NCBI RefSeq assembly: GCF_054482525.1
Contig: NZ_CM137006.1
Length of the DNA: 64,000 nt
Direction: 5' to 3' (one strand)
Below the pieces are notes generated by a model, which saw only the letters and a program-made list of their open reading frames with translations, searched no databases and was not told the DNA's origin. Position numbers and translations under genes: made by a program. Positions 24,699 to 42,464 of the stretch are shown one piece after another. Numbering within the stretch: the first letter of the stretch is position 1; each line of letters begins with the position of its first letter.

Positions 24699-26699
24699 TC
24701 ATCCTTGTTGCTGAAGCATGTGGAATAATTGTTCGCAAAGCAAAACACCGTTATTCATTGCTTCTACCCGTGCCTCGCTTTCTGTATTACAAAATTGTGC
24801 CAACACATGTGCCAGCCGATAAAAACCGACCGCGGTGAGGTCATTCGCCAGCAACTCTGCCTGACCAATAGCACTCTGTTCCTGATAGCGCCAGCCGTTA
24901 TGGAGCAGTTGAATAAGTAACGCCTGGCAGCGCATCAGCAACTGATGAGCGGTAGACGGCACAGGCAGAACGCTGGCAGAAGGTAGCGGTGCCACAGGCG
25001 CAGTTTCTGCGTCCAGCGCCCAGGCGCGGGTTTTGGTCATCATTACCCGTGGTTCCAGTGTCAATTGCCCCTCAACAAAACTGACAAAGCCAGAAACCAG
25101 ACTCACGGGGTCGTCTGTGTGTTGCAAAAGTGCCGCCATGCGTTCAACGGCAAAAGGCGCGCTGGCTGAGGCTGGCAGTGATAAAGTCAGCAGATTATCT
25201 TCACCTTCGCCGCTGATTACCTGCGCATCCAGCGTCTGGCGGCTGCTATCCCAACCGAGTGAAATACACTCAGCGACTGGCAGAATAAATAAGTTATCCA
25301 CCTGATTAAGAGGCCGTATGCAGGCGGGGGGACGCTGGCGTAAATATTCCCGCAAAGCCACAATGCCCGACTGGCGCAATGGCGCGCTCAACATTTGCCA
25401 GGCGTCTGGCGACAGCGGCACAACGCTGCTTAAGCGGTTGCGGGTAGCTAACAACAGCTCGCCATCGGCACTGCGTTTTGCTGCTTGTGAAACAATTTGC
25501 CCACCTGCCAGTGCGCCAGCCAGAAAACTAAACAGCCGACGCGTCGCTGCCGGTGAGTTTTCCTGTTCGCTTCTCGGCCAACTACGCGAAAGATGCAAAA
25601 TACTGCCAGTGTCGGGATCGGTAAACCAGATGCGTAAACCATAATGCTCAATATCCTGCCAGCAACGCATACCTAAAGACACCAGCCGCAGATGATCAAG
25701 CTTTGCTTCTCCGGCAATGCCAGAGCCAACGACCGTGCGCCACGGCACAGGAGGAACTTCACCAACACTGTCGCGCCGGGCCATCTCTTGTGCGCAATTT
25801 AATCGACTGTTTAATGCCGCAAGCTGACGTAAGCATTCTCCGACATGATAGTGGCTGGCGCGGGCGTGGAAGGCATCAACGCTGGCGCGCAGTTGCCGTA
25901 GCGATTCACTCACCCAGCGCCAGTTGCAGCGTTCCGCCGCTTGCTGCGCGCGGCTGAAAGCAGCCTTGTAATGAATAAGCGGCTGGCTGATGCCGCCAAG
26001 CCATAACGCCTGGCTTAATTGCTGAACATATTGACGACACGCGTCGCCCTCATCGTTGGCAAACGGATCGTCAGATGATGTGACGTGTTCGCTGCGCATC
26101 TGCCAGATTAAATGAGTAAATTCCGCTTGCTGCGCTTTGGCCTGGACAAAGGCCTGTACTGCCAGTACGACATGTTCGCAAAGTGTGCCGTCAATACAAT
26201 CACAGCGTGCGAAACGAATGCTGCTGCGGGAATAAAAACGTACATCGCTCATCGGTAAGCGGGCAGAGGGAATTTCGCCCGGCGTACAGAACAACTCAAT
26301 GGTGATGCCTTTAGCGACCAGTGTCTGTGCGCGTTTGCGGGTGGCATCGGGCAGGGTAGCCAGTTCTTCCAGCCAGATTGCCGGATCCCACTCTTCTTCT
26401 TTTTCCGTAGGCTGGGTGGTGGCGCAAAGTCGCTGATAACTTAAAACCAGCATCACGCGATGGCGGCACATGCCGCTGGCCCCGCAGCTGCATTGAGCCT
26501 CTTTCAGTGCCTGACCGTTCGCCAGCTGGGTGCGGACACCGTCACTGAAGGTGGCGATTAAAGCGCCGTTCTCATGGCTGATTTCCGGGACGTTGCCATT
26601 TTCCAGTTCTTTAAGGCTGCGCTTAACAAAACCGGCATTGCTTAACGCCGTCAAAGCTTGTGGTGTCAGTTCTAATAATTCCGGCCGTAGTGAATTCAT
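24699..26699 (-). CDS. yehQ: SWIM zinc-finger protein YehQ
   Basis: 666-aa ORF with two CxC-x(n)-CxH motifs (CSCGASGMCRH and CDCIDGTLCEH); start overlaps yehP stop by 4 nt; the true start may be internal. Confidence 0.8.
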   Translation of the reverse strand: MNSLRPELLELTPQALTALSNAGFVKRSLKELENGNVPEISHENGALIATFSDGVRTQLANGQALKEAQCSCGASGMCRHRVMLVLSYQRLCATTQPTEKEEEWDPAIWLEELATLPDATRKRAQTLVAKGITIELFCTPGEIPSARLPMSDVRFYSRSSIRFARCDCIDGTLCEHVVLAVQAFVQAKAQQAEFTHLIWQMRSEHVTSSDDPFANDEGDACRQYVQQLSQALWLGGISQPLIHYKAAFSRAQQAAERCNWRWVSESLRQLRASVDAFHARASHYHVGECLRQLAALNSRLNCAQEMARRDSVGEVPPVPWRTVVGSGIAGEAKLDHLRLVSLGMRCWQDIEHYGLRIWFTDPDTGSILHLSRSWPRSEQENSPAATRRLFSFLAGALAGGQIVSQAAKRSADGELLLATRNRLSSVVPLSPDAWQMLSAPLRQSGIVALREYLRQRPPACIRPLNQVDNLFILPVAECISLGWDSSRQTLDAQVISGEGEDNLLTLSLPASASAPFAVERMAALLQHTDDPVSLVSGFVSFVEGQLTLEPRVMMTKTRAWALDAETAPVAPLPSASVLPVPSTAHQLLMRCQALLIQLLHNGWRYQEQSAIGQAELLANDLTAVGFYRLAHVLAQFCNTESEARVEAMNNGVLLCEQLFHMLQQQG

Positions 26700-27832
26700 G
26701 ACTGAAGATTCTCCGCAAGCCAGGTCGCCAGTTCGCCCGGCGTCATGGCGGCTATTTGTGCGCCGACATTAACCAGCGCCTGGGCCGTATCGTGGTCATA
26801 GCAAGGTGTTGCGGTGCTATCGAGCGCCGCCAGTCCCAGTACTTTGATGCCGCTCTGGACACACTTTTTCACCTGATGCGTCAGTAATGATGATGAACCC
26901 CCTTCGTAAAAATCGCTCACGAGGATAATGACGCTTTTCGCTGGTTGTTCAATAAGTTGCCGACCATATTCCATGGCACTGGCGATATTGGTTCCGCCGC
27001 CTAATTGCACTTTCATTAATAACTCTACCGGATCGGCAACGTCTGCCGTGAGATCAACCACGCTGGTGTCAAACGCCACCAGATGGGTACGAATACCGGG
27101 TAACTGCCATAAACAGGTCGCCATCACCGCTGAGTGGATCACCGAGTCCACCATTGATCCGCTTTGATCAACCAGTAAGACCAGTTGCCATTGTTCACTG
27201 TGGCGCTTAATGCGGCTGTTAAAGCGGGGGGATTCGATATACAACTTGCCGTGTTGCGGATGCCAGTGTTGCAGGTTGGCGCGCAGCGTACTTTTGAAAT
27301 CAAAGTTTCGCGCCAGTGGAATAAATGAGCGGCGACGGCGATCGCGGACACCAGAAAAAGCCTGACGAACTTCCTTTGCCAGTCGCGCCATAATCTCTTC
27401 AACAACCTGGTGCACTATCCGGCGGGCGGCAGCCAGCACTTCGGGATTCATCAGATGTTTAGTGTGCAAAACGGCGCGTAGCAGGCTTTCAGAAGGCTGC
27501 ATACGTTCCAGCACGTCGAGATTCGTCACCACATCTTCAATGCCGTAGCGCAGTACGGCATCGCTTTCCAGCCGCTCGATCACCTGTTGCGGAAACAGCG
27601 TGTGAATACTGTTGATCCACTTAGGGGTGGTGAGATTTGAGTCACCTAATCCACCGGAGCGTTCACCACGCTGGAGCCGTTCAGGATCGCGCCCATACAG
27701 CCACTCCAGCGCGTGGTCTATCTGCCGGGCATTGTCATCCAGCCCACAAAGGGTCGTTTCTGCCGCTTCGCCAAGAATTAATCGCCAGCGATGTAGCTCA
27801 CGGGTGGTCAGAAGATCGTTCAGTTCAGACAT
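26696..27832 (-). CDS. yehP: von Willebrand factor A (vWA) domain protein YehP
   Basis: Start placed at MSELNDLLTTRELHRW (378 aa); MIDAS-like motif VDQSGSM. Confidence 0.85.
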   Translation of the reverse strand: MSELNDLLTTRELHRWRLILGEAAETTLCGLDDNARQIDHALEWLYGRDPERLQRGERSGGLGDSNLTTPKWINSIHTLFPQQVIERLESDAVLRYGIEDVVTNLDVLERMQPSESLLRAVLHTKHLMNPEVLAAARRIVHQVVEEIMARLAKEVRQAFSGVRDRRRRSFIPLARNFDFKSTLRANLQHWHPQHGKLYIESPRFNSRIKRHSEQWQLVLLVDQSGSMVDSVIHSAVMATCLWQLPGIRTHLVAFDTSVVDLTADVADPVELLMKVQLGGGTNIASAMEYGRQLIEQPAKSVIILVSDFYEGGSSSLLTHQVKKCVQSGIKVLGLAALDSTATPCYDHDTAQALVNVGAQIAAMTPGELATWLAENLQS

Positions 27833-30104
27833 GGAAAACTCCCCAGTGTTGCAGCGATGCCAGTGCCTGCTGTTCGAGTTGTTGATGATGTGCAATGGCT
27901 TGCGGTGGACAATGCAACGGCATTTGCAGCGCTGAAACGGGAAGCTGTGCGAGCTGGTAATGCTCAAGCACCTGATGCGCCAGCGTCCCGCGTTCTCGTG
28001 GTGGTAGCCAGGCCATCGCCGCACGCAAATCGGGCAGGGCGTTAATAAAATCGTCGTCACTCAGTTGATTTAAATGACTACTGAAACCGGCGATAAATGC
28101 CGGCTGACAGGCCAGTTGATGGCGGGCCAGCGCCAGCAAACCGTGCAGTGCCTCGCCGGATTGTGCCGGGGATAATTGCGCCAGCATCGTCAGCGCCGCT
28201 TCGGCACTGGCGTTGGGATGTTCCAGACGCATCAGTGCGCCAAGAGCCGCGCCGCGATCCAGCGCCGAGGCATGAATCGCCTGACTGCGGCGCTCAAGTA
28301 AGGCTACCGCCGCAGAAAGCGAAACGCCGGGTAAATTAACGCCGCTATGTAGATCGCGCAGGATATGGCAAAGCGCCTGCCAGCTATGCAGGTGAGCGTG
28401 AAACTCCTTTTCCTCCGGTCTGCCGTTGGATTCACACAGCCAGAGTGTGCGATCGATAGCCGCGCATAACGTCGTCTGTAATATCTGCGCGCCTTGCATA
28501 CCGCTAATTTCATCCAGCCGCCATAAGGCGTATAGCACTTCCAGCGCCTGGCCCATTTCGGCAAACTGATTTTCCTGGGCGATTAATAATGTAAGTTGCT
28601 CCAGTAATTGTTGACTGAAGGACGCCAGACCCGCTAACGCCGCCTGGCTAAGACATGTGGTGATACTGCCGATTCCACCCGCGTCCAGCATATCGGCTTC
28701 TAATTTATTGCGTGCGGCTTCCTGGAGTGTGGCACCAAAGCAGGCGGCCTCAATTAATGCCGCATGTTGGCTAAGCGGGCGGGTTAATTTCCAGCGTTCT
28801 TCACCGTTGCCTGCAAGTGTCAGTGTACTTCCCTGCTGGCGCACAACCCCTGGGATCTCCAGTATTGCCAGCCGATGTAACACCTGACTTTGCGCTAGTC
28901 CATTGGGGTTAAAGCGATTTAAGGTAAGCTCCGCCGGAAGAGAGATTGCGGTACGTTCCAGTTCGCAGGTGACATCTTTTGGCAGAGGCGGTTGTGGCGT
29001 AGAAGGGGCAAGTTTACCGAATCCGTCACCCGCTAATGTGTCTATCAACGTTAGCAGAATCGGATCGGTATCGGGATGAATAACGCCGCGATAGCTCCAC
29101 GGCAACGGCGCATTCAGGGCTTCTTTAATCAGCGAGCCTGCTATGGCATCCAGCCAGTCAGTGCGTAACGGTAGTGTATGACCGCGCAACTGTGCCAGTG
29201 CCATCGCATGCAGATGAGCGGCAGCCATATCCGCTGTTGAAGCAGGCAAGTGGTGCTGGCGCAAACGGGTAAGAACCGTTTTCAGCAGTTGTTCACCTGC
29301 CTGCTGCAAGCCCCACCGCCAGCACCAGTTTTGCCAGACCGGGGCAGGCATACCGGAAAGGTATCCTGCCAGCACATCAAGGCGCTTTTCACTGTAGGGT
29401 GTGAGATAACAACCTGTAACGGCATCATCCAGTAAGAGCAATTCTGGCGTGTTAATTACCTGCGGACATTCGCGCCACATTTTTGCCAGTGCCGGAGCGT
29501 GCCAGCCACCGCAGACAACTAACACGTCGCCATTATTTTGCTGCATCGCCCATCCAATCCAGCGGGCCATAAAGGCTTCGCGCTGACGATTGAGAGCATC
29601 TCCGGGGGAGTCGCCCCGCAGTTGGGCAAAATAGTGCGCAAGTGCAGAGGGTAATGCAGTTTGCTGCCTTTCATCTTCGAACAAGTGATCCCACAGGGTG
29701 TCGCTGTTATCCATGCGGGTGGCACGCAGCAGCAAGGTCTGGCTTTCCTCTTGCGTATCAGGCGAATCGTCCTCTTCTTCACTCTGCGCCCAGCAAGGCA
29801 AATCGATGAAGTAAGTTTGTGCCTGAATACGACGAGCGGCTTGTAGCGCCTGCCACTCCGGCGAAAATTCAGCAAATGGCGTCCAGGCACCACGCCCGGG
29901 GGCCGCACCGTCCTGATACTGGCAATAACTGTAAATAGCTACCGGAAGCTGGTGGGCTAACAACAGTTCGTCTACCCGGTCATTAAAATCAGCCGGGCCT
30001 TCAATCAACACATATCGTGGCCGCTGGCTTTCGATTAACGATTTCACCAGCCGGGCGCAGGCCGGACTATGATGCCGGATGCCGACAATTAACGGCTCGC
30101 TCAT
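27825..30104 (-). CDS. yehM: large uncharacterised protein YehM
   Basis: Start placed at MSEPLIVGIRHHSP (759 aa); overlaps yehP start by 8 nt. Confidence 0.85.
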   Translation of the reverse strand: MSEPLIVGIRHHSPACARLVKSLIESQRPRYVLIEGPADFNDRVDELLLAHQLPVAIYSYCQYQDGAAPGRGAWTPFAEFSPEWQALQAARRIQAQTYFIDLPCWAQSEEEDDSPDTQEESQTLLLRATRMDNSDTLWDHLFEDERQQTALPSALAHYFAQLRGDSPGDALNRQREAFMARWIGWAMQQNNGDVLVVCGGWHAPALAKMWRECPQVINTPELLLLDDAVTGCYLTPYSEKRLDVLAGYLSGMPAPVWQNWCWRWGLQQAGEQLLKTVLTRLRQHHLPASTADMAAAHLHAMALAQLRGHTLPLRTDWLDAIAGSLIKEALNAPLPWSYRGVIHPDTDPILLTLIDTLAGDGFGKLAPSTPQPPLPKDVTCELERTAISLPAELTLNRFNPNGLAQSQVLHRLAILEIPGVVRQQGSTLTLAGNGEERWKLTRPLSQHAALIEAACFGATLQEAARNKLEADMLDAGGIGSITTCLSQAALAGLASFSQQLLEQLTLLIAQENQFAEMGQALEVLYALWRLDEISGMQGAQILQTTLCAAIDRTLWLCESNGRPEEKEFHAHLHSWQALCHILRDLHSGVNLPGVSLSAAVALLERRSQAIHASALDRGAALGALMRLEHPNASAEAALTMLAQLSPAQSGEALHGLLALARHQLACQPAFIAGFSSHLNQLSDDDFINALPDLRAAMAWLPPRERGTLAHQVLEHYQLAQLPVSALQMPLHCPPQAIAHHQQLEQQALASLQHWGVFHV

Positions 30105-30114
30105 GCATCTTTCC

Positions 30115-31203
30115 TCACGGCAGGCGGTGGCGAGCTTGATAATAAGCCTGCCAGTGAGCTTCTTTATGTGTGGCGACGCGCTGTTCGAAGTAACGGCGCA
30201 GACGCGCGCGATCTTCTTCGTTATCTTTGACGATGGTTCCGGCAATACAGTCCACCAGGTCGGCAGGCTCCCCCGCGCGATTCGCTAAAAACCAGGCGCG
30301 GACACCCACAGCATGGGCCACGTTAACGGCTTCAGCGGTGGACATAATCGCTGTCAGTGTATCCATTGACGTTTTCTTTTCGCCGTTGGCACGCAGATCG
30401 CGGAACGTGCGCACCAGTAATTCCAGTACCGTGTCAGGCACTTTATGCGGAATACCGCTATGGGCCAGCAAACGCGCCGAAGCACTGGCGACCAGTTCCA
30501 GCTCCTGGGCGAAATCCATAATCGGAAAGACAGTTTCAAAATCGAAGCGACGCTTTAGCGCAGCACTCATTTCATTGACGCCGCGATCGCGGGTATTGGC
30601 AGTGGCAATAATATTAAAGCCTTCTCGCGCATAGAGCTGACTGGCTTCACCAGTGAGTTCCGGCACCGTCATTACCCTGTCAGAAAGCATACCTAACAGA
30701 CAGTCTTGTACTTCCAGCGGTGTACGCGTTATCTCTTCAAAACGGACAATTTTGCCGTCGCGCATTCCCTGGTAAAGCGGGGCTGGGACCAGCGCTTCCG
30801 TTGACGGACCATGGTTGATAAGCAGGGCGTAGTTCCAGCCGTACTTGATTTGATCTTCAGTGGTAGATGCGCCGCCCTGGATGGTTAACCCGGCATCGCC
30901 GCTAATAGCGGTTGCCAGTAATTCAGACAGGAGAGATTTTGCGGTGCCAGGTTCCCCCACCAACATCAAACCGCGCCCGGTTGCGAGAGTGACTAACATG
31001 CGTTCGACAGCGGAGGGGCTAATCACGACTTTACGGCTAATATTTTGTGCTTCGTCGCCAAGGATAAAAGCGCGGGCCGCAGGCAAACTTAACTGCCAAC
31101 CTGGCGGGCAAGGTGCGTTATCATTTTGTTTTAATTTTGCCAGTTCATCGGCGTATAACACAGCGGCAGGCGGACGCTGCAGATGATTATTCTGCGGTGA
31201 CAT
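30115..31203 (-). CDS. yehL: MoxR-like AAA+ ATPase YehL
   Basis: Start placed at MSPQNNHLQRPPAAVLYADE (362 aa); Walker A-like GEPGTAKS. Confidence 0.85.
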   Translation of the reverse strand: MSPQNNHLQRPPAAVLYADELAKLKQNDNAPCPPGWQLSLPAARAFILGDEAQNISRKVVISPSAVERMLVTLATGRGLMLVGEPGTAKSLLSELLATAISGDAGLTIQGGASTTEDQIKYGWNYALLINHGPSTEALVPAPLYQGMRDGKIVRFEEITRTPLEVQDCLLGMLSDRVMTVPELTGEASQLYAREGFNIIATANTRDRGVNEMSAALKRRFDFETVFPIMDFAQELELVASASARLLAHSGIPHKVPDTVLELLVRTFRDLRANGEKKTSMDTLTAIMSTAEAVNVAHAVGVRAWFLANRAGEPADLVDCIAGTIVKDNEEDRARLRRYFEQRVATHKEAHWQAYYQARHRLP

Positions 31204-31312
31204 ATATTCATCCCTGAAATGTATTAATGAAATAAACGATATTTTACGCGCAATAAATGTTTGGCGCATTAGTTGTTTGAGCGAAAAATATCTGGAAAGC
31301 AGATCACAGTAA

Positions 31313-31397
31313 ATAAAAAAACCTGCTGGTGAGGCAGGTTCTTTGATTTACTACTTTCAGGCCTAACACCACGGCCTGTGCAACATCGTGTTCCAAC
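31313..31397 (-). ncRNA. orzO: putative OrzO-1 antitoxin sRNA (boundaries inferred)
   Basis: Minus-strand promoter (-35 TTGCAA, 17-bp spacer, -10 TATAAT as revcomp of 31404-31409) and minus-strand terminator hairpin acctgc...gcaggt plus T-run (31313-31340); contains the complement of a 19-nt stretch that recurs in the zorO-1 5' UTR (31543-31561). Confidence 0.45.
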
Positions 31398-31426
31398 GAA
31401 CGAATTATAACCATCGGTGGACCCCG

Positions 31427-31454
31427 TTGCAATTAAGATAATGAGATTTATAAT
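31427..31454 (+). promoter_or_regulatory. putative sigma70 promoter of zorO-1 (TTGCAA-16 bp-TATAAT); palindromic -35 shared with the divergent orzO promoter
   Basis: -35 ttgcaa 31427-31432, -10 tataat 31449-31454; predicts a 5' UTR of about 174 nt. Confidence 0.5.
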
Positions 31455-31635
31455 CCTGACTGTTGGGACGTTGCGCCGGATCGAACCCATTTCAAGTCCT
31501 GGCTACCGGACGGGTGGTGCCGCAGGTAGTGCCCTGATCCGGAGTGCAACATCGTGGTCCAACATACGTAAACCAGTATCGACAGGCAGTGTAAGGGTAA
31601 GGTGCTGGTGTTGCGCTCCTTAATAAGGAGAGCGA

Positions 31636-31725
31636 ATGGACACGCTGACACAAAAGTTAACCGTGCTCATTGCTGTACTGGAGCTATTAGTGGCTCTGTT
31701 ACGGTTGATTGATTTGTTGAAGTAA
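31636..31725 (+). CDS. zorO: type I toxin ZorO-like small hydrophobic peptide (29 aa), copy 1
   Basis: ATG preceded by SD aaggag; translation MDTLTQKLTVLIAVLELLVALLRLIDLLK; assignment to ZorO of E. coli O157 is from memory; below the ORF-track cut-off. Confidence 0.65.
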   Translation: MDTLTQKLTVLIAVLELLVALLRLIDLLK

Positions 31726-31746
31726 TGGGCAAATTGAAACGCAACT

Positions 31747-31774
31747 AAGGGGGAAAACCGCTTCCCCCTTTAAT
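31747..31774 (+). terminator. rho-independent terminator downstream of zorO-1
   Basis: aagggggaaaaccgcttccccctttaat: GC stem followed by T-run. Confidence 0.7.
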
Positions 31775-31921
31775 AAAATGATTACATCTTCCATTAATTC
31801 ACCCGATAACTTTTTTCATATTTATAAATTCATCGATTTTATAATCAACGTACTATTTGGCCGGGATGTGAATAATCATGGTGGGCTATTGGCGAAAAAT
31901 ATCTGGAAAGTAGATCGTAGA

Positions 31922-32006
31922 AAATAAAAGAACCTGCTGGTGAGGCAGGTTCTTTTATTTACTACTTTGATGTTAAGTTACTGATAGTGCAACATGGCAT
32001 CTCAAC
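31922..32006 (-). ncRNA. orzO: putative OrzO-2 antitoxin sRNA (boundaries inferred)
   Basis: Same promoter/terminator architecture as copy 1; pairing segment differs from copy 1 and matches its own UTR target (32156-32174). Confidence 0.45.
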
Positions 32007-32244
32007 GAACGAATTATAACCACCGCTGGACCGTGTTGCAATTAAGATAATGAGATTTATAATCCTGACTGTTGGGAAGTTGCGCCGGATCGAACCCATT
32101 TCAAGTCCTGGCTACCGGACGGGTGGTGCCGCAGGTAGTGCTCTGATCCGGAGTGCAACATGGCGACTCAACATACGTAAACCAGTATCGACAGGCAGTG
32201 TAAGGGTAAGGTGCTGGTGTTGCGCTCCTTAATAAGGAGAGCGG

Positions 32245-32334
32245 ATGGACACGCTGACACAAAAGTTAACCGTGCTCATTGCCGTACTGGAGCTATTAGT
32301 GGCTCTGTTACGGTTGATTGATTTGTTGAAGTAA
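32245..32334 (+). CDS. zorO: type I toxin ZorO-like small hydrophobic peptide (29 aa), copy 2
   Basis: Identical 29-aa translation to copy 1; SD aaggag upstream. Confidence 0.65.
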   Translation: MDTLTQKLTVLIAVLELLVALLRLIDLLK

Positions 32335-32355
32335 TGGGCAAATTGAAACGCAACT

Positions 32356-32383
32356 AAGGGGGAAAACCGCTTCCCCCTTTAAT
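32356..32383 (+). terminator. rho-independent terminator downstream of zorO-2
   Basis: aagggggaaaaccgcttccccctttaat. Confidence 0.7.
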
Positions 32384-32455
32384 AAAGTAATATTCTATTA
32401 GTTGGTTGAATATATTCTGTAGTTTACGATTAAAAATTGCTATTACAGTTTCAGG

Positions 32456-32707
32456 TTATTCACCTCGTAATTTCCGCTCATCAATACACTCATCTCTTAT
32501 ATAAATCAACGCATCATTTATTAGCGGGTCAACATCCTCTCGATCACGTTGATGAAATGTTGGACGTAGCCGGAACCGTTCCAGTCGGTAAACGGAACCT
32601 GTAAATAATTCAGAGCATTTATGGATCTCAAGTCTGAAGGAAAACGGATCTTCAGGTACAGGGACCTCATAATTGTAAATAGCGACCAGCTCTTTTTGCA
32701 CGCTCAT
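32456..32707 (-). CDS. small hypothetical protein, possibly YehK-like
   Basis: 83-aa ORF directly downstream of yehI on the same strand; identity not confidently recalled. Confidence 0.45.
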   Translation of the reverse strand: MSVQKELVAIYNYEVPVPEDPFSFRLEIHKCSELFTGSVYRLERFRLRPTFHQRDREDVDPLINDALIYIRDECIDERKLRGE

Positions 32708-32767
32708 CGCTTTTCCCGATGGTAAGTCGTGTTGATAACGGGCAGTCGCATCACTGCCCGTTGTGTT

Positions 32768-35700
32768 TTAATGGAAAATGACGTCGGGTGCGCTTAACGC
32801 CTCACTCAAATCAAACACATCAAGTTCGGCAAAAGTGACAGATTTATTGTCACGGTATACATGAAGAGAACGGAAGCTCATTAGCGCTTTGCTATCAACA
32901 TTGTAGTGGTTAAAACCGGATGAAAACTTAAGGACCAGCCGGTACTCGCCCAGGTCATAGACAAATGCGTTCTCATAGCCTGACTCCCAGCCTTTGTATC
33001 GCATTCCCATAAGTTGCCCAACGGTAGCAGATTTACCTTCCCAGCGATTCAAACTATTACTGGCTGACTCGTCAGGCGTGAGCAGTACTGTGCGCCGTGC
33101 CAATTGGCGAAAAGGCGGCATAATTTCGTAATCGGCAAAAAGCTGTGCAAACTCACTGCGCATTTCTGCTGCCATTTCTAACGGGTGGGCAATGCCAATC
33201 AGAGCATCGGCAGGCAGGTCAATTGGCTCATCTTGCTCATTGCAGAACTCCCCCTCAGCGGCCACACGAAAGGCGTTGAGTAAACGACGCGGTTCATTTG
33301 CCGGATAAACACCCCATATTAATCGCTGAGTAACCAGACGGGTAAAGGGATGATTAACAAACAGAGAATGAAAATCTGCCAGCGACCAGCGTCGGGTGGT
33401 GCGCAGGGCAGTTTCAAGACGCGGGAGCAGGTTTTTGCTCACCTGAGTGGCATCTTTTTTTAGCCCTTTTAGTCGGGCCAGTGCCTCGGGTGCTTTCAGT
33501 TGATCGTCATCGGCGCGCAACCGGGGAACGCTTTTCTGGCGAACGTTTTGCTGATCAAAGATAACCGGGTTAAGGTTTTCATCGAAGCGAACGGTAAATT
33601 GCCGTGGACCAAAATCAAAAATCAACGCCTGCGGATCATCAAGACCCAGTGTTGGGACTAATCTGTCCGCTAACTGTTCCTGGCTTAGCCCTCGATTTTC
33701 TGCGACCACCTGAAGAAATTCCGCCGCGTTATCACGTAAGGGGCGGGATTTCGCCCGTTGCGATATATGATGCAGCTGTATCAGTGCCATATCATTATTC
33801 ATCTGAGTAAGGATGTTCAGGCCGCTGACGGCACGGGCAGATTTGCCTTCCTGTGGCCAGGCAAGGATCTGTGTTGTTAGATCCCGTGCCGTGCTTTCGT
33901 CGCCAAAGAGACTTAACGCCAGAAATGCCCAGTTGTCTTTTGCGGGAGCACCAGCTTGTTGCCACGCGGTGAAAAGATCCCAGGCAAAGGCTGCCAGCGT
34001 TTGCGGCTGGCAAAACGTTTTCAGCTGTTCCAGTCCGCTATAAAAACGTCCGCCCTGGGTAAAGCGCAGCATTTCGCCGATAATTTCCAGAGCGTCATCA
34101 GTAACAGGTTGATTATTCGTGATAAGGCGCGGCCTGGACCACATTGCCGGCTGCCAGAAATCAGGGGCTTTTGGAATGCGTGTCGGGTAAATCTCTATTG
34201 GACTCTGTTTAAGTAATTGCTCCAGGGCAGGCCATACATCTTTACGCTGCCAGCGGTTTGCCACGGTTTGCAGTAACTCGCCATGTCCCTGTTCGTAAAG
34301 TAAACGCAGGGCAAGTAATGCAGCTTCGCTATTATCGCTGGATTTGGTGAAGACAAGAGGGATAAGTGCAGTAGCTGTATGTTCCGGCCATTGTAAAATC
34401 CACTGGCGGGCCAGATCTCGCTGCGCCGCGAAACGTCGCCAGACGCGGGCAACGGGCAGGGCCAGTTCGGTTGCGCCGAAATTTAAAATTAACGGAAATG
34501 TTTCTTTTGGACGATGTGAAAAAGCCAACAGCAGACCTGGTAGAGCATCCAATCCGAAGATACTGAGAAAATAGTCCTCACCCGCAGACAGATGCTTTTT
34601 CTCATTGATACGTAGCCAGAAAGTCAAAGCCATCTCACGCGGCAACTGCGCCAATAAATACAGGTTCCAGATACTCTTTTCCCGACGATAGCGTGAGTAG
34701 CTGTCATTTTCCCATATGTTAATTAACACTTCTACGTGACCGCTGTGAAGCGCCTGTTCTGCTAATTGAGCTTCCGGGGAGCTCCAGCCATTCATGATCT
34801 CTTCAACCCGCCCTGGGTAGTAATGCCACTGAACAATGAGTGAATTGCGTGCAGCATCCAGTTTTCCGGGGAGTATATAATTCAAAAACAGCCATACATC
34901 ATCTCCAAAACCCAGCTCCTGTAGTACAACTCGTCCACTTTTTTGTTCCATGCGTTCCGCAAGAGATTCCGTGCTGAAATAACGGGCAGACGCAGTGGCG
35001 GCAAGCCTCTCTCGTTCGCCTGGTTGCCAGTAAACTTGCGGCGTTAATTCGAACGGTGCCAAATCAAGACGTGGAACTGTCATTTTTTTCTTACTACGCC
35101 ACGGTGGTGAAACGAGGATTTCAGGCATTTGGCTGTTATCGGTGCTATCAATAACCGTTTTGGACGGTGCCGATAAATAACTATTCAGCATTGCCCGGGC
35201 TTGAGTACTTAACCACGGCATCACCTCTTCTGCCAGTTGTGGCTGCGATGCCATCAGCGTTTGTAACAGCGTACGCCAGTATTCATCGCGTGCTTTTTGC
35301 TGTGCAGGCAGCTTTTTGTCTTCAATGATTGGATAACCAGGGCGCGCAGGTGGTTCTTTTAACGCCAGCAGTTCTGCTAATGCGGCGAGCGTCGCATGGG
35401 GGAAGTTTTTACTGTATTTAGCCACACGTTGCAGGCTGGGTTTGTTTTTATCAGCAACTAACAGCAAGGTGCGGATGACTTGCGGATGGTTAATTTGTAC
35501 CAGCAGACTGCCGCAATCTTCTTTATGGGCATACATCGCGAGGCGCGGAACGGCTGCCAGTCCTTGTTCGCGCAAAAGGGCGGCGCAGGCCGCGTAGCCG
35601 AAGCGGTTTTCTTGTGACATGTAGCTGGCTTCGCGATCGCTAAATACGTCCAGGCCCCAGTATCGTTCGAGTTTTTTTACCGCCGTATTATCAGTAGCAA

Positions 35701-36400
35701 CGACCTTTAACCACTCCTTTGAATGGAGACTTGACCGGGAGCTTTCAAAACTGGCGAGTTCATTGGCTATTTCAGGTTTTTCCGGGAGGATCAGCGCAAT
35801 AAAAGGACGGCGAATTTTGGGTATTCCTGGCAGTGCGGCAATGAGTTTATCGGCACAACGCTGCCAGCAACTTTCCTCTGCCAGCGACAGATGCTTACGC
35901 AAACGGAGATCGAAATCGTTATAGGTCGCGGAGCCATAACCGTAGCTATAGTCCTCGTCCTGATACTGCAAAGTGACGACCAGTGAGTCACTCTCATAAC
36001 GCCGCGCAATGCACTGACGCGATATCACTACATCCGTCGCATATTCCAGCCCCTCTTGTTGCACGATTTCATCAAGTAACTGCTGGCTGTCATTTTGCGC
36101 GATACAGATCAGAGCCGCCATGGTAAGGGCTGGGATTGACGGTTTATGCTCGCCAGTCAAATTGATTGCCTGCTGGATGGCGGACTGCCACTCCAGTGAG
36201 CATTTATCATAATTCCAGGTGATATTTTCCTTCTGGCCTGCTTGTTGTAGTAATTCATCTCCCAATGTCTGGATGAGACTTCCAGTGATAACGGACACTG
36301 GTTCGCCCGGCCAGCGACGATGACTGAGCGGCGTTTTGCCTTTTTTATATTTCAGTTCCAGTTGGGCGTTATCCGCCAGCCACGGTAATTCCTTGTCCAT
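32768..36400 (-). CDS. yehI: large DUF4132-family protein YehI
   Basis: 1210-aa ORF; shares long blocks with the adjacent MolR-like ORF (FAWDLFTAWQ.AGAP, LDFGPRQFTV.FDE, RLIWGVY). Confidence 0.85.
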   Translation of the reverse strand: MDKELPWLADNAQLELKYKKGKTPLSHRRWPGEPVSVITGSLIQTLGDELLQQAGQKENITWNYDKCSLEWQSAIQQAINLTGEHKPSIPALTMAALICIAQNDSQQLLDEIVQQEGLEYATDVVISRQCIARRYESDSLVVTLQYQDEDYSYGYGSATYNDFDLRLRKHLSLAEESCWQRCADKLIAALPGIPKIRRPFIALILPEKPEIANELASFESSRSSLHSKEWLKVVATDNTAVKKLERYWGLDVFSDREASYMSQENRFGYAACAALLREQGLAAVPRLAMYAHKEDCGSLLVQINHPQVIRTLLLVADKNKPSLQRVAKYSKNFPHATLAALAELLALKEPPARPGYPIIEDKKLPAQQKARDEYWRTLLQTLMASQPQLAEEVMPWLSTQARAMLNSYLSAPSKTVIDSTDNSQMPEILVSPPWRSKKKMTVPRLDLAPFELTPQVYWQPGERERLAATASARYFSTESLAERMEQKSGRVVLQELGFGDDVWLFLNYILPGKLDAARNSLIVQWHYYPGRVEEIMNGWSSPEAQLAEQALHSGHVEVLINIWENDSYSRYRREKSIWNLYLLAQLPREMALTFWLRINEKKHLSAGEDYFLSIFGLDALPGLLLAFSHRPKETFPLILNFGATELALPVARVWRRFAAQRDLARQWILQWPEHTATALIPLVFTKSSDNSEAALLALRLLYEQGHGELLQTVANRWQRKDVWPALEQLLKQSPIEIYPTRIPKAPDFWQPAMWSRPRLITNNQPVTDDALEIIGEMLRFTQGGRFYSGLEQLKTFCQPQTLAAFAWDLFTAWQQAGAPAKDNWAFLALSLFGDESTARDLTTQILAWPQEGKSARAVSGLNILTQMNNDMALIQLHHISQRAKSRPLRDNAAEFLQVVAENRGLSQEQLADRLVPTLGLDDPQALIFDFGPRQFTVRFDENLNPVIFDQQNVRQKSVPRLRADDDQLKAPEALARLKGLKKDATQVSKNLLPRLETALRTTRRWSLADFHSLFVNHPFTRLVTQRLIWGVYPANEPRRLLNAFRVAAEGEFCNEQDEPIDLPADALIGIAHPLEMAAEMRSEFAQLFADYEIMPPFRQLARRTVLLTPDESASNSLNRWEGKSATVGQLMGMRYKGWESGYENAFVYDLGEYRLVLKFSSGFNHYNVDSKALMSFRSLHVYRDNKSVTFAELDVFDLSEALSAPDVIFH

Positions 36401-36409
36401 GCTCTTTCC

Positions 36410-39400
36410 TTATTCAAACAGGGCTTCAATATCGTTAATTAGCTCGCTGGCGGTGATGGCATCGAGTACGGAGAGCTGCGCTTCCTGTGTTGAATTACTC
36501 CTCCAGCCATAGCTTTCTGCTTTGCCTTCCCATAGCCACAGCTTGCTTAAGATTTGCTCGGCACTCAGTTCGGCTGGTGACATACCCACCGCAAAACCTT
36601 CATCGATTTCCATGATTAACGACCAGCGGCCCAGAGGTTTGATCATCCAGCCGATCCAGCCTGCATCCAGCGGGGTGCCCTTTATCCAACCTTTATTCGC
36701 CAGTCCCATGACCCGACCGCTCGGGCATTTTCTGCCTGCCCAGCGGATCAATTCGCTGGCATTGCGCTCGGTTTCTGTCAGGGCGTAACTGTTACGGTCG
36801 AGCTGGCGAAACGGCGGTAGCAGTTCGTAGTCGGCAAAAAGCTGACCAAAGGCGGCAGCATCCGTGGGTGATATTTCCAGAACGTGAGGAATACCAACAG
36901 AGATATCGCCTTCCGGCGGGGTGAAAAGATCATCGTCAGCGGTGCTGTAGCTGTTATCTTCCGCCACGCGAAAGCAAGCCAGTAGCTCGTTTTCGGCGCT
37001 ATAAACGCCCCAAATCAGACGGCGGGTTAAGTGACGAACCAGCGGATGCTCAACCAGGAAGAGCTGAAAGTTTTCCGGCGACCAGCGGCGGCGCAGGCAC
37101 ATGGCGGATTCCAGCCTTGCTACCTGCTGGGCGGCGACGGTACGCGCATCTTTTTTCAGCAATTTGTAGCGGTTAACAGCATCGTTCGCCTGTGATTCAT
37201 CATCGCTTTTATTGGGTTTAGGTAAGTCTTTCAGGCGGCTGCCGGAAACATCGCGCACAAACGGTTTTAAGGTTTCATCAAAGCTGACGGTGAACTGCCG
37301 TGGGCCAAAATCCAGCAGCAGCGAACCGTTATCATCCAGACCGAGATCCGGTGCTAACCGGTCTTCAAGTTCCGCCACCGTGAGTTCGCGGCTCTCGGCA
37401 ATGTCGGCAATTTTTTCTTTCGCCCGCTCCTGTAAGGCTTTGAATTTCAGTTTCTGGGCGATGCCGTTAAGCTGCATCAGGGCGATATCGCTGCCGATAG
37501 CAGCGAGAATATCCAACCCAACGGTGGCACGTTTATGCTGAGATTCGCCAGGCCAGGCGCGGATTAATGGCGTCAGTTTGCGGGCGGCGTCATCGTTACC
37601 GAGAACGCCTAACGCAGTGAACGCCCAACTCTCTTTCGACGGCGCGCCAGCGGTCTGCCAGGCGGTAAACAGATCCCAGGCAAATTCAGCCAGTGAGTCG
37701 GCGGTACAGGCATCTTTCACCTGCAATAATCCCGGATACAGCGCCTCCTCCTGATGGAAGCGGAGCATTTCACCGAGGTGCTGGAGTGCGCTATCGGGCA
37801 GTGATTGGGCGCTTGCTTTTAATACCGGGCGGTTCCAGAGCGATGGCTGATAAAAGGCCGGAAGAGTGGGGATTTTTGTCGGGTGATTATCTAAGGGATC
37901 GAGCGCAAGCAGAGCGTTCACCGCGTCTGTTACTTCCGGCTGGTTATAACGCCGGGCGATTTCTTGCAGTAATGGCTGATGACCGTTTTCGGTAAGCATA
38001 CGCAAGGCAGCGCGGGCGTTATCCTGTGCTTCACCGGATTTGCCGAGCGCCGAAGGTAGCAGGCCGGTAATGGCGTGTTCCGGGTATTTCAGCAGCCAGG
38101 TGCGGGCGTCTTGTCGTAGGGTTTTGAGTTTGTTGAAGGCGCGGGCGATCAGTGGCGCTAATTCGATAGCCGCAAAATATTGTGCTACAGGCAGAGCTTC
38201 TTGTGGATAGCGTGAAAAGGAGTGAATAAAACCCTGTAACCCAGTGAGTTGCAGGTGCGTCATGACAAACTCGACACCGACGTGTGGCTCTTTACTGAGG
38301 ACATTCCACGCCTGCGCTGTCTTTTCGATAGGCAGGGTGGCTAACATGTAAAGCTGCCATTCCCGTTGATAGGAGTGCCAGAAGGTTTTAAATTCGCTGA
38401 TCAGCGCGGAATAATGTCCCCTTTGCCAGAGATCTATAGCAGCATCAGGCGCTTTCATATACTGGCCATTATTCCAGCGATTGAAACCCAGACGTGCCAG
38501 GTAGTTCTGAATATCCTCTTTTTGGCCGATGTCTATTTGATGTGCGTGCCAGCGATGCCTTGCATGAATCTCTTTTTCTGCCGTCTCGGTCAATGTGCAG
38601 CATGACTCCAACGATAATGGCGTTAAATCCAATACCGGTATAACAGATTTTTTCTTTTTCGAAAGCCAGGGCGGTGAGACTAATACGGCAGGCAGTAGAT
38701 CGGCGCAGGCATGGTTTGAGGGCTGTGTCAGTTGTTGCAGGCATGCTTTCAGCACTGCAACTGCGGGTGTTGAGAGCCAGGGAGTGACCTGTTCTGCTAG
38801 TGCCGGTTGCGAGATAAGCATCGTCATTAGCATAATGCGCCAACTATTCTCTTCTTTTTGCGCAAGAAGTTCCGCCAGTGCCGCCAGTGCCGTGTGTGGG
38901 AACGCAGCGCAAGCCTTAGTCATTCGTTCATGGCAGCGTTTAGTTTTGCCAGACACACGTATAAGTAGCATTAATGCTTGTGGGTGATTGATCTCTGCGA
39001 GAATACTTCCGCAAAGATCAGCATAAGCATAGGGGGCGAAGCGAGCGATTCCGGCAATCCCTTGCTCCTGCAAAACGGTGACATTCCAGATGCAACCATG
39101 GTAATAGTCATTAAAAAGGTCGTACGCGCAATAAGATTCCAGTGCTTTGAGCAAGGAAGATTCTTGTACAACAAGTTTCAGCCATTCAACAGTTTGGATA
39201 TTTTTCTGCTCCAGTAACCGTCGTGCGATTTCTTCTGCAATCTCCGGGCGTTCCGGTAGCATTAGCGCTACCATCGGTTGTTGAACGGGAGGAATATCAG
39301 GCAAAGCTGTAATGAATTTATCTACACAGCGTTGCCACAAAGTTTCTTCTGCTAGAGCCAAATGTTTACGCAGTCGAACGTCAAAGGGGGTAACACAATG

Positions 39401-40159: not shown

Positions 40160-40257
40160 TCTGCATCCCTGTAATTTTATCCAGTTGAATGCTGATGCTA
40201 CCAGTATTTATGCGGGTTAGAGAGAGACAAAATCGCAAGAAAACAACTTTAGGAATT

Positions 40258-40290
40258 TATAAAGAAAAGGCGCTGTCGATACAGCGCCTT
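40258..40290 (-). terminator. rho-independent terminator downstream of metG
   Basis: Minus-strand hairpin aaggcgctgtcgatacagcgcctt followed by a U-run. Confidence 0.7.
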
Positions 40291-40299
40291 GAAAGGAGA

Positions 40300-42333: not shown

Positions 42334-42464
42334 AGTAGGCATTACTTCTTAATAGTGAAAAGGGGTTAGATAGTACCAAATGGGAAAATGTTAAGTAAGT
42401 ACTTCTCTATATTCTTCAGGTAAACTATCAGCTGATGGTTTATCTATACAAAAAAGGAGTCGGG

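Follow-up and report, generated by a model that had tools for sequence, protein, structure and literature searches.

The yehL-yehK intergenic site of the window, the whole 64,000-nucleotide stretch of DNA analyzed here, almost certainly carries a tandem pair of complete zor/orz modules, which belong to a known type I toxin-antitoxin family of Escherichia. A tandemly duplicated, zorO-orzO-like type I locus had been proposed in an earlier note made from the sequence, and the proposal is borne out by Rfam OrzO-P matches, an exact ZorO peptide and the published duplicated locus. The locus is already known, having been described by Fozo's group (Wen 2014, Wen 2017, mSystems 2024).

Layout and Chromosomal Site

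The two units form a tandem pair of ∼610 bp each, in agreement with the ∼609 bp given earlier. A repeat finder returns a 300-nt direct repeat (31378-31677 / 31987-32286) with 94% identity and a spacing of 609, together with a 77-nt repeat (31281-31357 / 31892-31968) with 92% identity and a spacing of 611. The units are flanked by yehL and a yehK pseudogene. The chromosomal site from yehL to yehK/yehI is confirmed by annotation, both that of PCN033, whose sequence matches the window at 100% identity, and that of 12 further genomes; an O157-like strain carries zor/orz at the same position, and the locus is conserved in three further Escherichia species. A second locus elsewhere, suggested by two matches per record, was rejected, since the pattern tracks two-copy genomes; the paired matches are put down to a tandem repeat aligning out of register with itself.

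In all 14 records examined (14/14), zor and orz go without RefSeq annotation, a gap that covers both the toxin open reading frames (ORFs) and the small RNAs (sRNAs) of the genomes inspected.

Toxin Genes

31636-31725, plus strand: zor copy 1 ORF, 29 aa plus stop codon, protein identical to ZorO
31747-31770, plus strand: terminator-like GC-rich hairpin after zor copy 1, inverted repeat AAGGGGGAAAACCGCTTCCCCCTT
32245-32334, plus strand: zor copy 2 ORF, 29 aa plus stop codon, same protein with A20, not the A20S "ZorQ" variant
32356-32379, plus strand: terminator-like hairpin after zor copy 2, from the inverted-repeat/terminator scan

Both ORFs encode the identical 29-aa peptide MDTLTQKLTVLIAVLELLVALLRLIDLLK, as had been noted before. 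The comparison with ZorO in a database, proposed at the same time, returns an exact match by sequence look-up to UniProt ZORO_ECO57, the "Small toxic protein ZorO" of E. coli O157:H7. The peptide also equals the synthetic ZorO peptide of PMC6669753 and contains all of the residues addressed in mutant studies, namely, D2, K7, E16, R23, D26, K29 and the ALLRL stretch at positions 20 to 24. Scans of Pfam and NCBIfam assign it to no family. The toxicity of ZorO and its rescue by OrzO have been shown experimentally (PMC3919570), and toxicity, rescue by the cognate Orz, a need for RNase III and independence of Hfq are published for the identical peptide with an O-type leader and sRNA. The hairpin at 31747-31770 was scored by the scan on the minus strand; on the plus strand, it is followed by TTTAATAAAA.

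Divergent Promoters and zor Leaders

31404-31432, minus strand: orz copy 1 promoter, −35 TTGCAA (31432-31427), 17-nt spacer, −10 TATAAT (31409-31404)
31427-31454, plus strand: zor copy 1 promoter, −35 TTGCAA (hexamer common to orz), 16-nt spacer, −10 TATAAT (31449-31454)
31462-31635, plus strand: zor copy 1 5′ untranslated region (UTR), 174 nt, start placed by mapping the published coordinates
32013-32063, both strands: unit 2 divergent promoters, orz −10 at 32018-32013 (minus), −35 TTGCAA at 32036-32041, zor −10 at 32058-32063 (plus)
32071-32244, plus strand: zor copy 2 5′ UTR, 174 nt, same geometry as zor copy 1

A scan of positions 31200-32500 shows only four promoter-like sites, which make up two divergent pairs. 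Each pair contains one TTGCAA hexamer (31427-31432; 32036-32041) that is the −35 element on both strands, with TATAAT as the −10 boxes, so that the palindromic −35 described earlier is recovered by the scan. The Orz promoter hexamers are identical in Table 3 of PMC11264685. Transcription starts in the window are placed from published geometry: a UTR of 174 nt, with the ribosome-binding site (RBS) at +164 to +169 and the EAP region at +73 to +102, fits exactly with a start at 31462, in line with the long toxin 5′ UTR previously claimed. The leader of copy 1 then contains the EAP region at 31534-31563, a standby-like GGAGTG motif, as described in PMC11264685, at 31541-31546 and the RBS AAGGAG at 31625-31630. 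In the leader of copy 2, GGAGTG lies at 32150-32155, the Orz target at 32155-32172 and the RBS at 32234-32239.

With this arrangement, the single palindromic −35 of each module would serve two divergent sigma-70 promoters. The rightward product would be a zor mRNA with a 174-nt leader and the ORF of a 29-aa membrane toxin, and the leftward product would be an Orz RNA of ∼83 nt. By homology to the published zorO-orzO system, folding of the full-length leader would bury the RBS, and loss of the first 28 nt would open the EAP region, a probable ribosome standby site, so that the processed mRNA would be better translated. The single-stranded 5′ 18 nt of Orz would pair with the leader at +85 to +102, again by homology, which would block the standby site and lead to RNase III-dependent decay, with Hfq being dispensable. 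ZorO in excess would be expected to insert into the inner membrane, as published for zorO-orzO, causing depolarization and ATP depletion.

Thermodynamic folding predicts the RBS of zor copy 1 as paired, with a probability of being unpaired of ∼0.1, and this burial is as published. Shortening the leader by 28 nt raises the unpaired probability of the target in copy 1 (0.35 to 0.44) and lowers it in copy 2 (0.52 to 0.27). These small and opposed shifts do not clearly reproduce the opening of the EAP region upon removal of 28 nt, and they are not taken to speak against the mechanism.

Orz Small RNAs

31315-31397, minus strand: orz copy 1, ∼83 nt, orzP pairing type, 5′ end GUUGGAACACGAUGUUGC, intrinsic terminator at the 3′ end
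31924-32006, minus strand: orz copy 2, ∼83 nt, third pairing type, putative orzQ, 5′ end GUUGAGAUGCCAUGUUGC

Both sRNAs match the full-length model of Rfam family RF02083 (OrzO-P; gathering score, 60) on the minus strand, copy 1 at 31315-31390 with 91.9 bits and copy 2 at 31926-31999 with 90.2 bits. Matches to a Trp-leader-like attenuator and to STnc370, both below threshold in Rfam, were rejected, as both overlap the OrzO-P matches and are weaker than these. The 5′ end of orz copy 1 is placed from the −10 box 6 nt upstream and the published pairing of the first 18 nt of Orz. The RNAs of about 85 nt ending at 31313 and 31922 that had been predicted come close to the present values, with lengths of ∼81 to 83 nt and ends at ∼31315 and ∼31924. 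The predicted terminator is present at the 3′ end of orz copy 1, and only two Orz terminators occur within the window. The extended terminator stem of copy 1 contains a G at 31345 where other strains have a T.

Pairing and Predicted Insulation of the Two Copies

31380-31397, minus strand: Orz copy 1 pairing region, first 18 nt of the sRNA, V1 = ACG at nt 9 to 11
31546-31563, plus strand: Orz target in the zor copy 1 leader (+85 to +102), GCAACATCGTGGTCCAAC, from sequence comparison and duplex
31989-32006, minus strand: Orz copy 2 pairing region, V1 = GCC at nt 9 to 11
32155-32172, plus strand: Orz target in the zor copy 2 leader (+85 to +102), GCAACATGGCGACTCAAC, from sequence comparison and duplex

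The first 18 nt of Orz are known to pair with zor (PMC3919570). Both cognate duplexes of the window show the arrangement 6(1)11, with one internal mismatch at nt 7 of the sRNA. Copy 1 forms 17 Watson-Crick pairs within 18 nt around one A·G mismatch (−26.5 kcal/mol), and copy 2 forms 16 Watson-Crick pairs and 1 G-U pair around one A·A mismatch (−25.7 kcal/mol). In the cross duplexes, runs of contiguous pairs are only 4 to 7 long, and the energies are −13.8 and −13.9 kcal/mol; the latter energy belongs to Orz copy 2 with the copy 1 target, where at most 7 pairs are contiguous. The published rule for repression calls for at least 15 contiguous pairs or at least 17 discontinuous pairs with one internal mismatch (PMC3919570, PMC11264685), and both cognate pairs (17/18) lie exactly at this threshold, not comfortably above it. 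An engineered OrzO with 6(1)11 pairing fully represses zorO, which OrzP leaves unrepressed, and a swap of V1 transfers specificity (PMC3919570); the published repression experiments concern the O-type pair of EDL933.

Since each sRNA pairs with its own leader at 17 of 18 positions and with the other leader only in short runs, each antitoxin is predicted from these sequences to control only its cognate toxin mRNA, in keeping with the cognate tuning suggested before. The copy-specific pairing stressed there is the published "V1" specificity determinant: the duplicated locus, the target-specific V1 pairing region and the absence of cross-repression are all in print (PMC3919570; PMC11264685). The 19-nt stretches said to recur between each sRNA and its UTR are correct in position (31380-31398 versus a stretch from 31547, with the target 18-mer at 31546-31563, and 31989-32007 versus the target at 32155-32172). 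They are not exact recurrences, as the 19th base never matches and the pairing, which extends over 18 nt, is interrupted by one internal mismatch. This pairing is usefully measured by Watson-Crick counts and duplex energies. A scan of the window for complements of the Orz 5′ ends that counted G-U as pairs is not discriminating, because G-U-rich chance sites reach 16 to 17 of 18.

A comparison of the two units shows 5 differences within the 18 nt of each pairing segment (28%), against 4 in the 296 remaining positions of the zor transcript; for the whole unit, the contrast between pairing segments and the remainder gives a Fisher p value of 1.4e−4. The changes in the pairing segments are compensatory. 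The earlier statement that the copies differ in exactly this segment holds for the matched compensatory changes and fails for exclusivity: the greatest divergence between the sRNAs lies in their middle part (31358-31379), which differs at 64% of positions, and not in the pairing segment. A nonfunctional duplication or generic intergenic repeat, with a fortuitous small ORF and fortuitous complementarity, would fit the missing RefSeq annotation in 14 records and the lack of a Pfam or NCBIfam model for the peptide. This explanation is already refuted by the Rfam matches, the exact UniProt name, the experimental literature, the conservation in three other Escherichia species and the concentration of mutually compensatory substitutions in the pairing segments, and its probability is practically nil.

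Pairing Types across Escherichia Genomes

Copy 1 is of the zorP/orzP pairing type, with the sRNA 5′ end GUUGGAACACGAUGUUGC, the target GCAACATCGTGGTCCAAC and a V1 (ACG) equal to the published OrzP V1. Its pairing segments are identical to those of the yehL-proximal copy of the O157-like strain and of O157:H7 PV15-279, yet the encoded protein has the ZorO sequence and not T3S. The zorO/orzO pairing type of EDL933 (V1 GAA; sRNA GUUGGUACGAAAUGUUGC, target GCAACGTTTCGTACCAAC) is found in neither copy of the window. Compared to this O type, copy 2 differs at 5 of 18 positions in the sRNA 5′ end and at 6 of 18 in the leader target, and most of these differences compensate each other.

Copy 2 represents a third pairing type, putatively the published zorQ/orzQ, which commonly encodes the A20S "ZorQ" variant and was termed the "third locus type" by Shore et al. 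(2024, mSystems; PMC11264685). This assignment depends on the linkage of the pairing type to A20S, which is seen in four genomes, namely, strain 2015C-3121 and three others in which a distance of 302 nt separates the Q-type orz 37-mer from the A20S 37-mer. The pairing type of window copy 2 is the one linked to A20S, whereas its ORF encodes A20, the ZorO sequence. Of 5,426 complete E. coli genomes, 818 contain the Q-type orz 37-mer; with A20S occurring in 300 genomes, it is estimated that ∼60% of Q-type loci appear to encode A20. The orzP-type 37-mer is present in 4,679 of the 5,426 genomes, far above the number holding a second module.

The sRNA type is coupled to the matching leader type in every full unit (12 E. 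coli loci and 3 other Escherichia species), with compensatory changes at pairing positions 5, 6, 9, 10 and 11. E. coli, E. whittamii and two unnamed Escherichia species share the same P and O pairing sequences, and the combinations P+O, P+Q and O+Q are observed. The mismatch at sRNA nt 7 is kept in the P, Q and Q′ types, whereas the O type pairs perfectly; the natural O pair, like copy 2, contains one G-U.

The internal mismatch, together with the G-U pair of copy 2, might instead mark a module in decay, having lost control or function rather than being tuned. Imperfect cognate pairing in both copies, the terminator-stem change of Orz copy 1 at 31345 with its Rfam score of 91.9 bits compared to 99.9 bits for the orz of K-12, and the recombinational instability of the tandem locus, which has collapsed to one hybrid unit in one O157:H7 strain, would agree with such decay. 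It is nevertheless very improbable. The P-type mismatch is found in 12 of 12 full P-type units (the window, 9 E. coli loci, E. whittamii and Escherichia sp. MOD1-EC7003) and is therefore ancient and maintained; consensus promoters, RBS, intact ORFs and terminators are kept in both modules; 6(1)11 pairing is experimentally sufficient for repression (PMC3919570); and 804 genomes contain an exact copy (at least 99%) of the Q-type 37-mer.

For the functional modules favored here, the conserved nt 7 mismatch could be selected for repression strength or RNase III cleavage rather than result from drift. The site may also preserve a few mutually orthogonal alleles of pairing specificity (P, O, Q and the Q′ sRNA variant) as an old trans-species polymorphism, a possible but rather doubtful view. 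The variability of the pairing region, and the idea that it may prevent cross talk in multicopy strains, have already been published (PMC11264685); only the conserved mismatch and the trans-species aspect would be new.

The Orphan Antitoxin of K-12

The reported absence of the locus from K-12 holds for the toxin only. At the same site, the orz of K-12 MC1061 is intact (Rfam, 99.9 bits), and the two promoters are kept together with ∼29 nt of the zor leader. This intact orphan orzP has been published as OrzPmg, and ∼30% of E. coli strains, K-12 included, contain a conserved and expressed orphan orzP with no toxin, taken by those authors to suggest functions beyond toxin repression (PMC11264685). 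The sRNA pairing region and the promoters of OrzPmg are the same as those of window copy 1. In K-12, the leader breaks off at about +29 and both the target site and the toxin ORF are missing, whereas the window modules are complete.

These findings bear on the proposal that the main task of zor/orz is not that of a toxin-antitoxin system, its benefit being, e.g., aminoglycoside tolerance or metabolic tuning, with the Orz RNAs also acting in trans on other targets. The conserved orphan, confirmed as intact in MC1061, the excess of the orzP-type 37-mer over second modules, and the published improvement of growth in kanamycin by the nontoxic ZorO variant R23L are in its favor. On the other hand, the toxicity of ZorO and the rescue by OrzO are experimental results, and the tight covariation of sRNA and leader indicates selection on this particular RNA-RNA interaction. 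Such a role is unlikely to be the main one, and it would supplement the toxin-antitoxin mechanism without replacing it.

Relation to Known Systems

The zorO-orzO/zorP-orzP locus of E. coli O157:H7 EDL933 (Fozo 2010; Wen, Won & Fozo 2014, PMC3919570; Wen, Harp & Fozo 2017, PMC5397157) resembles the window in its yehL-yehK site, two-module tandem, promoters, 174-nt leader, RBS position, target at +85 to +102, 29-aa toxin and Rfam sRNA family. Two differences set the window apart: copy 1 encodes the ZorO sequence (T3) and not ZorP (S3), and copy 2 is not of the O type. As earlier publications cover the locus, its mechanism, V1, the third type and the orphan antitoxin of K-12, the value of the locus as a discovery is low. 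It serves as a positive control, in which a genuine type I toxin-antitoxin pair was recognized from the raw sequence alone, down to the common −35 and the cognate pairing. In addition, the natural P, O and Q pairs provide a ready orthogonal set of 18-nt sRNAs and targets for studies of minimal specificity.

Among other type I systems, Ibs/Sib and Ldr/Rdl likewise comprise several paralogous modules per genome; each sRNA represses its own toxin mRNA and is not known to repress the others. Sib and Rdl are true cis-antisense RNAs overlapping the toxin gene, whereas Orz is encoded divergently and is complementary to its target over just 18 nt. In other divergent-sRNA systems, such as that of OhsC, the sRNA pairs far upstream of a sequestered RBS, as Orz does, and the mRNA is activated by 5′ processing with a standby-site logic, as for zor. 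In contrast to zor/orz, their toxins and pairing sequences are unrelated, and they are single-copy in E. coli, without orthogonal specificity types. Orz copy 2 scores 35.4 bits against the Rfam OhsC model, below its gathering score of 50.

Organization of the Tandem zor/orz Locus

Two tandem units are found inside positions 31275-32400 of the window, where the repeat finder returns a 300-nt direct repeat (31378-31677 and 31987-32286, 94% identity, spacing of 609) and a further repeat of 77 nt (31281-31357 and 31892-31968, 92%, spacing of 611). A promoter scan of 31200-32500 yields only four promoter-like sites, which form two divergent pairs. The repeat finder and the ORF and promoter scans thus bear out the earlier note in its account of tandem units with identical ORFs, a shared -35 box, and a terminator for each small RNA. 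The zor starts were placed at 31462 and 32071, which is 174 nt before the ATG and 8 nt past the -10 box, which puts the ribosome-binding site (RBS), the target, and the GGAGTG motif at their published offsets. The orz starts were placed by promoter geometry and homology.

Features of the two units (copy 1; copy 2)
31427-31432; 32036-32041 (both strands): shared palindromic -35 box TTGCAA with rightward and leftward TATAAT promoters
31397; 32006 (-): putative starts of the Orz RNAs, length of ~83 nt, pairing region in the first 18 nt
~31316-31344; ~31927-31955 (-): terminator-like hairpins after the leftward transcripts (repeat and terminator scans)
31541-31546; 32150-32155 (+): GGAGTG motif, directly upstream of the target
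31546-31563; 32155-32172 (+): complementary 18-mer, the Orz target, offset +85 to +102
31625-31630; 32234-32239 (+): RBS AAGGAG, offset +164 to +169, as published
31636-31725 (+): zor copy 1 ORF, 29 aa, translation MDTLTQKLTVLIAVLELLVALLRLIDLLK
32245-32334 (+): zor copy 2 ORF, 29 aa, same translation (MDTLTQKLTVLIAVLELLVALLRLIDLLK)
31747-31770; 32356-32379 (+): GC-rich hairpin after each ORF (repeat and terminator scans)

Identity of the Small RNAs and the Peptide

An Rfam scan of 30500-33500 gives two full-length minus-strand matches to RF02083 ("OrzO-P RNA antitoxin family"), for which the gathering score is 60: copy 1 at 31315-31390 reaches 91.9 bits, and copy 2 at 31926-31999 reaches 90.2 bits. 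Orz copy 1 carries a G at position 31345 (C in the RNA), where alignments show a T in orzP of K-12, an O157-like strain, and Escherichia whittamii. With this G the extended terminator stem loses a pair, flagged by cmscan as nonstandard; the 91.9 bits of this copy compare with 99.9 bits in K-12 and the O157-like strain. Orz copy 2 (31922-32006, -) also has subthreshold hits to STnc370 and to the antitoxin OhsC (35.4 bits against a gathering score of 50, E = 0.006), which reflect the resemblance of divergent type I antitoxin RNAs to one another in the terminator and 3' half.

The earlier note had named a peptide lacking a ZorO counterpart in the databases as one outcome that would speak against its reading; the 29-aa peptide stands in the protein collection as UniProt "Small toxic protein ZorO" (ZORO_ECO57). 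Pfam and NCBIfam scans of the peptide found no model. The same 29 residues, letter for letter, make up the synthetic ZorO peptide used by Otsuka et al. 2019 (PMC6669753).

Relation to the Characterized zorO-orzO System

The interpretation given in the earlier note is supported, but nothing essential about the locus is new, and the copy-specific pairing stressed in that note has also been published. This same duplicated locus was described in O157:H7 EDL933 as zorO-orzO and zorP-orzP (Wen, Won & Fozo 2014, PMC3919570). Published experiments on the O-type pair demonstrate the toxicity of excess ZorO and its rescue by OrzO, with repression requiring RNase III, Hfq being dispensable, and the first 18 nt of OrzO sufficing (PMC3919570). 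OrzP cannot repress zorO, specificity being set by the 3-nt V1 block (GAA in OrzO and ACG in OrzP); the minimum for repression is 15 contiguous pairs, or 17 discontinuous pairs interrupted by a single internal mismatch, and an engineered OrzO with 6(1)11 pairing (6 pairs, 1 internal mismatch, 11 pairs) represses fully (PMC3919570). Leader processing has been demonstrated as well: the 174-nt leader hides the RBS at +164 to +169, and loss of 28 nt from it opens the EAP region (+73 to +102), a probable standby site, to whose 3' end OrzO binds, also blocking translation (Wen, Harp & Fozo 2017, PMC5397157). In predicted folds of the leaders of the window, the RBS is buried (P[unpaired] of ~0.1), and no clear opening of the EAP is seen.

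All parts of the window locus are identical in sequence to the characterized family, with the pairing geometry, the covariation, and the conserved signals directly observed. The P and Q pairs of the window (see below) probably work like the O pair and are probably insulated from each other. A 2024 mSystems survey describes the Orz pairing region as "quite variable," its authors suggesting that this variability prevents cross talk, and finds that, by the pairing rule, 99.8% of Orz RNAs are able to repress the zor to which they belong (PMC11264685).

Copy-Specific Covariation

The two units differ at 5 of 18 positions (28%) in each pairing segment, compared with 2/84 in leader positions +1 to +84, 1/72 in +103 to +174, 1/90 in the ORF, and 0/50 at the 3' end (Fisher p = 1.4e-4, pairing segments versus the rest of the unit). 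The cognate duplexes form 17 of 18 pairs (-26.5 and -25.7 kcal/mol), whereas the cross duplexes contain 4 and 3 mismatches with longest runs of 7 (-13.8 and -13.9 kcal/mol). Among the types, pairing positions 5, 6, 9, 10, and 11 vary on both sides with Watson-Crick pairs kept. The matched differences between the copies proposed in the earlier note are therefore real covariation, in line with the published V1 result, to which a third natural type is now added. Two details of that proposal need correction. The pairing segment is enriched in differences, but they do not lie "exactly" there, as the middle stem-loop of the sRNA differs more (64%). The complementarity behind the 19-nt recurrence is present but imperfect, both cognate duplexes being mismatched at sRNA nt 7. 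This position (window 31391 and 32000) is mismatched in the cognate duplexes of types P (A.G), Q (A.A), and Q' (G.A) and paired in type O only; P-type units have the same mismatch whether they come from E. coli, E. whittamii, or Escherichia sp. MOD1-EC7003.

Pairing Types

All units of the window were compared with those of 12 E. coli loci and of 3 loci from other Escherichia species; their pairing sequences form discrete types.

Pairing types (sRNA 5' end; leader target; pairing)
P: GUUGGAACACGAUGUUGC; GCAACATCGTGGTCCAAC; 6(1)11
O: GUUGGUACGAAAUGUUGC; GCAACGTTTCGTACCAAC; 18 with one G-U
Third type (Q): GUUGAGAUGCCAUGUUGC; GCAACATGGCGACTCAAC; 6(1)11 with one G-U
Q': sRNA variant GUUGGGGCGCCAUGUUGC, in one strain, beside the target of the third type

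The naming is fixed by the published V1 blocks (OrzO GAA and OrzP ACG), the 15 nt of OrzP-zorO complementarity, and the 5(1)12 pairing of the OrzP V1 mutant; accordingly, O157-like strains have a P copy on the yehL side and an O copy on the yehK side. In the window, copy 1 is P type, although its protein has the ZorO sequence and not T3S. Copy 2 is of the third type, and its ORF encodes A20. Copy 2 probably represents the published zorQ/orzQ type, since the third type is linked to an A20S ("ZorQ") ORF in strain 2015C-3121, and three further genomes carry the orz 37-mer specific to this type at a distance of 302 nt from the A20S 37-mer.

Distribution and Rearranged Loci

The query is matched at least in part by 5,232 of 5,426 complete E. 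coli genomes; the P-type 37-mer occurs in 4,679 of these 5,426, the O-type in 1,255, and the third type in 818. In the loci compared, modules occur as P+O, P+Q (the window), O+Q, or alone. When one genome per species was scanned with the Orz terminator core, the locus also turned up in E. whittamii (P+O), Escherichia sp. MOD1-EC7003 (P), and Escherichia sp. E1V33 (O), with the same pairing sequences as in E. coli. At the genus level, the range of E. coli and Shigella given in 2014 (PMC3919570) is therefore a little too narrow.

The supposed absence from K-12 holds for the toxin and most of the leader, which are missing in MC1061, but not for orz. At the same site, MC1061 retains an intact orz (Rfam, 99.9 bits) with a P-type pairing region, both promoters, and ~29 nt of the zor leader. 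This orphan is the published OrzPmg, the product of an orz gene standing without zor in ~30% of genomes, including MG1655, where it is expressed (PMC11264685). In the MC1061 locus (positions 2041-2225), orphan orzP, the promoters, and the ~29 nt of leader are followed by a jump to the yehK-proximal flank (GAATTATTTAGAGTATATT). In two other loci (L013 and L014), this flank closes an additional repeat-like insert, ~130 to 200 nt long and downstream of zor, which we take to resemble an ERIC/IRU-type element. E. coli O157:H7 PV15-279 shows a single unit (positions 1131-1770 of its locus) where the O157-like strain has two, with orzP and a P-type target joined to an ORF and 3' flank resembling the second (O) copy. 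This unit looks like a tandem pair that has collapsed through recombination in the conserved part of the leader or in the ORF.

Genomic Neighborhood and Annotation

E. coli PCN033 is 100% identical to the window segment; its locus is flanked by yehL on one side and the yehK pseudogene and yehI on the other, and the O157-like strain carries zor/orz at the same chromosomal site. The zor ORFs and orz RNAs are annotated in none of the 14 fetched RefSeq records, whose feature lists give yeh genes only or "none"; standard annotation thus misses this known toxin-antitoxin locus. In the window, yehK (32354-32707, -) is a pseudogene, listed by RefSeq in PCN033 as "hypothetical protein, internal stop." Its longest intact ORF is 83 aa (32456-32707), compared with ~105 aa in other strains, and, as annotated, yehK extends at its 3' end into the terminator hairpin of zor copy 2. 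The locus lies inside the yeh cluster (window ~26000-43000), a MoxR/VWA-like gene set comprising yehQ (SWIM zinc finger), yehP (VWA), yehM (DUF5682), and yehL (AAA ATPase) and continuing with yehI and a second DUF4132 protein. In two O157-type strains, yehM contains an internal stop.
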